Positions 4,014 through 4,852 of a DNA stretch of 4,971 nt are shown piece by piece. This stretch comes from a virus (taxonomy: Duplodnaviria > Heunggongvirae > Uroviricota > Caudoviricetes). The translations under genes were made by a program, and so were the position numbers. How positions within the stretch are numbered: the stretch's first letter is position 1; each line of letters opens with the position of its first letter. The notes beneath the pieces were generated by a model. It ran no database searches. It was given only the letters and a program-made list of their open reading frames with translations, and had not been told where the DNA came from. The DNA is taken from the IMG/VR virus record IMGVR_UViG_2698536476_000014, one strand, 5' to 3'.

Positions 4014-4310
4014 ATGGAACAAACAAGTTACAGCAAACTATCACAGCGAGAAATTGATCGCGCTGAAACTGATTTACTCATCAACCTGTCAACGCTTACC
4101 CAGCGCGGTCTGGCAAAGATGATTGGCTGTCATGAATCGAAGATAAGCAGAACAGACTGGAGGTTTATAGCTTCGGTCTTGTGTGCTTTTGGCATGGCAT
4201 CAGACATCAGTCCGATTAGCAGAGCTTTTAAGTATGCGCTTGATGAAATCACAAAGAAAAAATCCCCGGTGGCCGCCGGGGACTCTAAGCAAATTGATAT
4301 GCAATTCTGA
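4014..4310 (+). CDS. cII: CII-like transcriptional activator, 98 aa
   Basis: Position between cro/nutR and O. Size and sequence resemble lambda CII (97 aa), including a C-terminal ...KKK.P.AA....QI.M.F pattern. The overlapping +frame ORF 4183-4383 is rejected. Confidence 0.75.
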   Translation: MEQTSYSKLSQREIDRAETDLLINLSTLTQRGLAKMIGCHESKISRTDWRFIASVLCAFGMASDISPISRAFKYALDEITKKKSPVAAGDSKQIDMQF

Positions 4311-4332
4311 GGGAATTACTGGATCAATCCAC
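4256..4332 (-). ncRNA. oop: oop-like antisense RNA (about 77 nt) with intrinsic terminator inside the cII 3' end and promoter po inside the O 5' end
   Basis: Minus-strand terminator: GC hairpin at 4264-4281 followed by ATTTTTTCTTT. Candidate po: -35 TTGAGT (4363-4368), 17-bp spacer, -10 CATAAT (4340-4345). The implied length of about 77 nt matches lambda oop. Boundaries are approximate. Confidence 0.5.
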
Positions 4333-4342
4333 AGGAGTCATT

Positions 4343-4852
4343 ATGACAAATACAGCAAAAATACTCAACTTCGGCAGAGGTAACTTTGCCGAACAGGAGC
4401 GTAATGTGGCAGATCTCGATGATGGTTACGCCAGACTATCAAATATGCTGATTGAGGCTTATTCAGGCGCAGATCTGACCAAGCGACAGTTTAAAGTGCT
4501 GCTTGCCATTCTGCGTAAAACCTATGGGTGGAATAAACCAATGGACAGAATCACCGATTCTCAACTTAGCGAGATTACAAAGTTACCTGTCAAACGGTGC
4601 AATGAAGCCAAGTTAGAACTCGTCAGAATGAATATTATCAAGCAGCAAGGCGGCATGTTTGGACCAAATAAAAACATCTCAGAATGGTGCATCCCTCAAA
4701 ACGAGGGAGGTTCCCCTAAAATGAGGGACATCCCTCAAAACGAGGGAAAATCCCCTAAAACGAGGGATAAAACATCCCTCAAATTAGGGGATTGCTATCC
4801 CTCAAAACAGGGTGAACCGCCCCGGGTTTCCTGGAGAGTGTTTTATCTGTGA
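4343..4852 (+). CDS. O: Replication initiator O, N-terminal fragment only; native sequence ends at 4812, and 4813-4852 is read-through into the IS end
   Basis: The translation MTNTAKILNFGRGNFAEQERNVADLDDGYARLSNML... matches the lambda O N-terminal domain as I recall it almost exactly. The gene contains the ori iterons, and coding continuity is broken at the IS junction. Confidence 0.8.
   Translation: MTNTAKILNFGRGNFAEQERNVADLDDGYARLSNMLIEAYSGADLTKRQFKVLLAILRKTYGWNKPMDRITDSQLSEITKLPVKRCNEAKLELVRMNIIKQQGGMFGPNKNISEWCIPQNEGGSPKMRDIPQNEGKSPKTRDKTSLKLGDCYPSKQGEPPRVSWRVFYL
4691..4812 (+). repeat. Lambda-type replication origin iterons: five complete copies of about 18 bp (TCCCTCAAAACGAGGGA-like) and a sixth truncated by the IS insertion
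   Basis: Copies at about 4691-4708, 4711-4728, 4730-4747, 4750-4767 and 4774-4791, with a truncated copy at 4797-4812. Each has internal dyad symmetry (TCCCTC...GAGGGA). Confidence 0.8.

Follow-up and report, generated by a model that had tools for sequence, protein, structure and literature searches.

A predicted antisense RNA unit between cII and O

The stretch of viral DNA analysed here (the window; 4,971 nucleotides (nt), IMG/VR record IMGVR_UViG_2698536476_000014) carries cI, cro, cII and the beginning of O, and our subject is the short interval that joins the last two, where a minus-strand antisense RNA resembling lambda oop is predicted. Positions 56-4812 are 100% identical to nt 9269-14025 of the Shiga-toxin 2 (Stx2) phage 933W (AF125520), and the same segment is matched by many other Stx1 and Stx2 phages. 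The 933W feature coordinates were transferred to the window by a 1445-nt shift (Table 1); the GenBank annotation of 933W contains no oop feature. By exact-protein look-up, the window was found to be the whole of draft contig LOGE01000162.1 from assembly GCA_001606545.1. We consider it highly likely that the locus is the pO-oop-tO unit (promoter, RNA and terminator) of phage 933W, that this unit is a homologue of lambda oop, and that it lies at a recombination linker. The sequence is the same as that of the 933W oop locus already catalogued (PMC3349717), the sole difference being that insertion sequences (IS) of the IS629 type interrupt N and O/ori (the origin of replication) in this copy.

The initial annotation, made from sequence alone, had placed a minus-strand promoter in the 5' end of O, and such a promoter is indeed seen there (4368-4340), identical to lambda pO. 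Its -10 element overlaps the O start codon (4343-4345), and its -35 element lies within O codons 7-9. Window and lambda show zero mismatches over 4331-4391, a span that covers +1, -10 and -35, and the promoter call carries weight because this sequence is that of lambda's experimentally mapped pO. In lambda, changing the -10 element from ATTAT to GCGCG eliminates oop expression (PMC3349717), and full pO activity requires ~94 bases to the right of oop (PMC5869508); the corresponding 94 bases of the window (4333-4426) contain one mismatch to lambda. A LexA-binding sequence has also been located within oop-pO (PMC5869508), and the window retains a LexA-box-like motif, CTGG-N8-ACAG, at 4319-4334.

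The ends of the RNA were transferred from lambda, whose cII ends at 38653, through a window-lambda alignment that is free of gaps over 4249-4689. The predicted RNA begins with a G at 4332 and ends in a T-run at ~4256, which yields 77 nt, the lambda oop length that had been proposed from the sequence. Fifty-five of these nucleotides are antisense to the 3' end of cII (4256-4310) and the remaining 22 to the cII-O spacer; lambda oop is likewise a 77-nt RNA that begins with pppG and overlaps the final 55 nt of cII (PMC3349717). Without gaps, 56 of the 77 positions of the oop body are identical to lambda oop (73%). The RNA is predicted to fold into a 5' hairpin and a terminator hairpin with an energy of -31.2 kcal/mol (z = -4.2; 0 of 200 shuffled sequences were as stable), a two-hairpin layout that lambda oop shares (z = -4.0). 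In the 5' hairpin, bases 1-10 pair with 35-44 in the 933W type and bases ~4-14 with 35-45 in lambda, and its predicted weight in the ensemble is greater for 933W than for lambda (0.47 vs 0.08).

A strong intrinsic terminator had likewise been proposed inside the 3' end of cII, and an 11-pair hairpin followed by a T-run was found there (4286-4253). Six of the pairs in this stem (4286-4259) are G-C, and in the consensus scan it was the longest stem among 6 terminator-like sites in 3500-4971, where 1.9 +/- 1.6 such sites are expected. When 19 distinct lambda- and 933W-type variants were aligned, the terminator helix was paired in 100% of cells, with two compensatory pairs (CG<->UA and GC<->CG) and 3 further pairs that vary on one side. 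Moreover, the P22-type loci among the listed IMG/VR matches have G+C-rich hairpins and U-runs at the same site that are unrelated to the window's terminator (fold z -4.6 to -4.9), with a shorter predicted RNA (~67 nt); three unrelated terminator sequences occupy the tO site in other lambdoid phages. We also considered tO as a rightward terminator of the pR transcript, which was ruled out: the plus-strand sequence after the hairpin, ACTCTAAGC, has no T-run.

The 933W unit is thus like lambda oop in its promoter, LexA-box-like motif, length, cII overlap, position between cII and O, and predicted two-hairpin layout. It is different in the 21 substitutions of its body, the two compensatory stem pairs, the shift of the 5' hairpin by 4 nt, and its target, a CII protein 33% identical to that of lambda.

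Table 1. Positions of the features of the window, in order from its first letter
Feature	Position	Strand	Basis or comment
IS629-type end, same as at 4813-4971 in opposite orientation	1-55	+	in gene N at 933W nt 9269
N'	53-235	minus	cut short; 933W annotation, shifted
nutL, tM terminator, L0081			between N' and stk in the listed order; 933W annotation
stk, serine/threonine kinase	891-1937	minus	933W annotation
L0083, L0084			listed between stk and cI; 933W annotation
cI	2862-3569	minus	933W annotation
oR/pM/pR			listed between cI and cro; 933W annotation
cro	3648-3875		933W annotation; nutR listed next
cII, 933W type, 98 residues	4014-4310	+	Pfam Phage_CII; 33% identical to lambda CII; target of the predicted antisense RNA
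Intermediate zone, 71% to lambda	4249-4317		cII C-terminal tail and oop body; DNA similarity to lambda begins at 4249
tO, intrinsic terminator	4253-4286	minus	hairpin AGAGUCCCCGG-CGGCCA-CCGGGGAUUUU, then U-run; inside cII 3' end
Predicted oop-like antisense RNA, 77 nt	4332 -> 4256	minus	ends transferred from lambda oop by ungapped alignment
Linker block ACTGGATCAATCCACAGGAGTCATTATGACAAA	4318-4350		holds oop 5' end, O ribosome-binding site and start codon, pO -10, LexA-box-like motif
pO: -35 TTGAGT 4368-4363, 17-nt spacer, TG, -10 CATAAT 4345-4340	4333-4368	minus	consensus scan and lambda identity
O' reading frame	4343-4852	+	156 codons of 933W/lambda-type O (to 4812), 13 IS-derived codons and stop; Pfam Phage_rep_O
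ori iterons 1-6	4691-4708, 4711-4728, 4730-4747, 4750-4767, 4774-4791, 4797-4814	+	933W annotation, repeats, lambda alignment
IS629/IS1203-type (IS3 family) end, 159 nt, orfB-proximal	4813-4971	minus	in iteron 6 of ori inside O

Identity to lambda rises in steps across the unit

The initial annotation had held that the window matches lambda from about the cII stop codon onward and that cI, cro and cII are divergent. The alignment it proposed as a check revealed stepped identity and not uniform divergence: ungapped identity to lambda is at chance level over 4189-4248 (25%), 71% over 4249-4317, 93% over 4318-4345 and 99.1% (341/344) over 4346-4689. Two boundaries, one near 4249 and one near 4315-4331, separate these segments. 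The clustered mismatches end at 4330, and the next 357 nt hold just three more (4392, 4451 and 4465), of which 4392 and 4451 correspond to the Gly17Glu and Leu37Ile differences of O from lambda that have been published for 933W O (PMC7466680). The N-terminal part of O is 90% identical to lambda, and the difference is almost wholly the 13-residue iteron insertion, a 39-nt segment (~4690-4728) that constitutes iterons 1 and 2 and brings the array to six iterons versus lambda's four; the six-iteron ori and the near-identity of 933W O to lambda O are likewise published (PMC7466680). To the left of the boundaries, the cI protein is 36% identical to lambda's over just 45 residues, cII is 33% identical, and cro gave no match to lambda in the protein comparison.

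The earlier claim therefore stands for the two sides, i.e., the 99% identity on the right and the divergent proteins on the left, with near-identity starting 5-20 nt beyond the cII stop (4308-4310). It does not hold for 4249-4317, which at 71% is intermediate and belongs to neither class; the cII tail and the oop body form an older zone. Taken together, 933W carries its own immunity genes and cII, a diverged oop body, and a pO/O/ori segment that is 99% identical to lambda with two extra iterons.

Flanking modules reassort across a conserved block

A 33-base-pair (bp) 'high homology region' served Hayes et al. 2012 to find oop in 21 lambdoid phages, including 933W (PMC3349717, Fig. S2 legend), and the block at 4318-4350 matches this region. 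We scanned IMG/VR for the block sequence ACTGGATCNATCNACAGGAGTNATTATG, which returned at least 120 contigs, and compared the 113 of the listed contigs that extend at least 300 nt on each side; the counts in this section refer to listed matches. To the left of the block, these loci present six types of oop body and cII tail (lambda, a lambda variant with a longer loop, 933W, and three P22-like types), and to its right five replication-gene starts (lambda O and four others), with 16 of the 30 possible left-right combinations seen. Lambda-type O accompanied the 933W-type body in 9 loci and the lambda-type body in 30; three other right types were found with the 933W-type body (13, 4 and 1 loci) and two other right types with the lambda-type body (6 and 7 loci).

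The positions at which these genomes depart from the window cluster at the two edges of the block. On the left, 89 loci diverge at 4303-4318; on the right, 74 diverge at 4339-4351, and 32 more differ at the iteron insertion only. Within the annotated phage collection, phage 86 and its relatives match the window just up to 4354. A second crossover point is placed at ~4249, since in 13 loci the cII body is of the 933W type and the tail and oop body joined to it are of the lambda type. The oop body is itself a micro-mosaic, in which short segments at positions 3-7, 19-20 and 29-46 occur in most combinations. A lambda-type 5' end (GUUGAUAG) is linked to a lambda-type 3' arm in 21 contigs versus a 933W-type arm in 1, and the other 5' version was found with all arm types.

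The flank types thus assort almost freely across a near-invariant block, which is the behaviour of a lambdoid linker sequence, and strict co-inheritance of left and right flank types is contradicted by the listed loci. With the sharp identity step, the 16 flank combinations and the breakpoints at the block edges, the recombination junction of lambdoid mosaicism that had been read from the window's sequence is borne out. The block acts as a linker for homologous recombination, with immunity and cII modules exchanged on its left and replication modules on its right; it is an instance of the lambdoid linker of the modular theory of phage evolution, from which it shows no difference.

Within the conserved block, window and lambda differ at two positions only, 4326 and 4330 (window ATCAATCCACA vs lambda ATCTATCAACA). 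This site resembles a DnaA box, and the window's version is present in most of the listed loci; DnaA sites have been reported downstream of lambda pO (PMC3985674).

Expected function and alternative explanations

By analogy with lambda, RNA polymerase would start at pO, proceed leftward for 77 nt and stop at tO in the 3' end of cII. The resulting RNA would pair perfectly with its own cII message, over the final 55 nt, and with the cII-O spacer, and the duplex would be cut by RNase III, lowering CII and shifting the phage toward lytic growth. In lambda itself, OOP pairs with the cII-O message, and upon RNase III-dependent cleavage CII falls and lysis is favoured (PMC3349717, PMC5869508, PMC5488031); the RNase III-dependent down-regulation of cII, as cited in two of these papers, was described by Krinke and Wulff for lambda only (PMC3349717, PMC5869508). 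Plasmid-borne oop abolishes CII activity in trans, an effect that requires the oop body (PMC3349717, PMC5869508). Firing of pO may additionally damp the convergent pR transcription that enters ori, as in lambda, where pO activity lowers such transcription and influences ori-driven replication (PMC3985674). Beyond lambda, a positionally equivalent OOP transcript (OOP-BTP1) was detected by transcriptomics in the Salmonella prophage BTP1 (PMC7067206), whose likeness to the window's unit is drawn from the published description. OOP-like sequences in Stx phages have been noted in reviews (PMC5488031, PMC12197685), one of which cites Nejman-Falenczyk et al. 2015 for oop in these phages (PMC5488031). 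On this analogy, the 933W unit should be expressed and should target the cII of its own phage as lambda oop does.

Several observations weigh against this reading. The register of the 5' hairpin differs between the 933W and lambda types, and helices 1 and 2 are just 85% and 74% paired across variants; no compensatory change was found in the 5' hairpin among the 19 aligned variants, and the commonest recombinant types carry mismatches in it. Given the differing registers and these mismatches, we gave up comparative support for the 5' hairpin and claim conserved structure for the terminator only. There, the compensatory changes split two lineages, so they amount to roughly one evolutionary event. 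Promoter-like sites in the consensus scan were at chance (2 vs 2.2 +/- 1.5 expected), and the scan was dropped as stand-alone evidence for this reason. At E <= 1, Rfam returned no relevant match to the window, the presence of any oop model in Rfam not being established. In lambda, OOP plays at most a minor part in the elimination of CII after SOS induction (PMC2327240), so that the physiological importance of this RNA is disputed. Finally, for 933W oop the searchable literature yielded no data on a transcript, its mapped 5' end or RNase III, and for oop transcripts in O157 or Stx phages it gave only citations of lambda work; because no such data were found, we infer the expression and effect of 933W oop by homology.

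The chance-level promoter count and the want of transcript data for 933W would both suit the view that there is no functional antisense unit at all, and that its apparent parts are by-products of coding constraints on O and cII or a remnant brought in with the lambda-type O segment. We consider this very improbable: pO is identical to an experimentally mapped promoter (PMC3349717), the terminator is fully paired with compensatory substitutions even though it lies in the zone that is not lambda-identical, three unrelated terminator sequences stand at the same site in other lambdoid phages, the fold is far more stable than that of shuffled sequence, and an OOP transcript is on record for BTP1 (PMC7067206). 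It is scarcely credible that the identity step arose without recombination, through unequal selective constraint on a conserved O/ori and a fast-evolving cII. The O N-terminus and the iterons are indeed functionally constrained, but 344 nt at 99.1% identity, synonymous sites included, directly adjoin sequence at chance level; the same left types are seen combined with five different right types among the listed loci, the converse holds as well, and the breakpoints of other genomes gather at the block edges.

A possible but rather unlikely account grants the unit but assigns its importance to the promoter and not to the RNA: convergent firing of pO would tune pR transcription into ori, with the 77-nt product as a by-product. 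Inactivating lambda pO raises pR read-through and impairs replication of lambda plasmids and phage, and higher oop RNA levels left copy number unchanged (PMC3985674); OOP mutations also failed to restore CII after SOS induction (PMC2327240), and in the window the promoter side is 100% identical to lambda versus 73% for the RNA body. On the other hand, OOP expressed from a plasmid abolishes CII activity in trans and needs the oop body to do so, as cited above, and the compensatory changes, together with the independent hairpins at the terminator site, argue that selection has acted on a short, discrete RNA. The two roles are compatible with each other, and in this contig, where ori and O are destroyed, replication tuning could not operate. 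The antisense pO-oop-tO unit is our preferred interpretation.

The 933W oop locus and the module boundary are real but ordinary and already published, and we claim no novelty for them; as a discovery they carry little weight, both the regulatory RNA and the mosaic boundary being textbook cases that the initial annotation had correctly recognised. Their practical use is in annotation. Automated pipelines miss oop, which is unannotated in the 933W record and has no relevant Rfam match, and a covariance model could be started from the present comparative set, which comprises three body types, five terminator variants and an invariant promoter block.

The window is bounded by two insertion sequence ends

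What the present analysis adds to the initial annotation is that the contig is IS-bounded, with N and O/ori truncated. Both window ends are the same IS end facing inward; as an inverted repeat of 56 nt they show 98% complementarity. Compared with the IS629 end of phage JLK-2012, the 159-nt right end is 95.6% identical and the 55-nt left end 96.4%. Related copies are annotated as IS1203 or IS3 family in E. coli; the window holds the IS ends only, and no transposase was seen. As the window is a complete draft contig with IS ends, the assembly therefore broke in the IS repeats.

On the left, N is shortened to an N' of 60 residues, and the terminal TGA of the IS provides its stop codon. On the right, the IS follows 933W nt 14025 (window 4812), so that iteron 6 keeps 17 of its 18 bases; with the insertion, the AT-rich region and the C-terminal half of O are lost, and O is cut at codon 156. 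The iteron array is thus present in the window without the AT-rich region or an intact O. The 169-residue open reading frame called O is an O'-IS fusion, and the exact protein was found only in this contig by exact-protein look-up. The repeated palindromic iterons also gave rise to two sub-threshold Rfam matches at 4691-4810 to H/ACA small nucleolar RNAs (snR191 and TtnuHACA21), which we rejected as spurious.

The two junctions differ in how widely they occur. The N::IS junction is common in draft assemblies (124 index blocks list the N' protein), and where checked its sequence was identical beside several different immunity and replication modules; two N::IS loci (L127 and L129) carry the same 933W-type region with intact O and P. 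Neither junction was found in 5,426 complete E. coli genomes or in GTDB representative genomes, the O::IS junction was not found in IMG/VR or JGI metagenomes, and the N::IS junction was not found in IMG/VR.

The window very probably represents a defective prophage copy in which pO-oop-tO is intact; it is very probably non-inducible because it is without a complete N and a working O/ori. The IS insertions therefore bear on the mobility of the toxin phage in the source strain, where this copy is probably non-inducible. Plasmids have been shown to confer an 'inhibition phenotype', independent of CI, that silences the replication of incoming lambda-type replicons and for which oop and the iterons are needed and the AT-rich region is dispensable (Hayes 2012, PMC3349717). 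Because the module that survives in the window equals this plasmid module, the remnant (pO-oop-tO and six iterons) may be imagined to have been domesticated as an exclusion module or a decoy directed at superinfecting Stx phages that replicate in the lambda manner; its oop RNA might also act in trans on co-resident or incoming phages sharing the 933W-type cII tail. We rate this as quite improbable, and exclusion of lambda-type replicons at single copy is unlikely.

Other lambda-related sequences in the window

Away from the cII-O interval, two further segments recall lambda. Downstream of the cI stop, on the minus strand (2811-2840), lies a fossil of a lambda-type cI C-terminus (NQWPEETFG*), in which 23 of 23 nt equal the lambda cI 3' end; an exact second copy of its 15-mer core, CCAAACGTCTCTTCA, follows the L0084 stop (2444-2458). 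The fossil and its repeat look like further linker sequences or recombination scars. In addition, positions 651-726, annotated as the tM terminator in 933W, share 92% identity with the stretch of lambda immediately downstream of rexB. This segment and the cI-tail fossil bracket the L0081-stk-L0083-L0084 cassette, which stands where lambda has rexAB.

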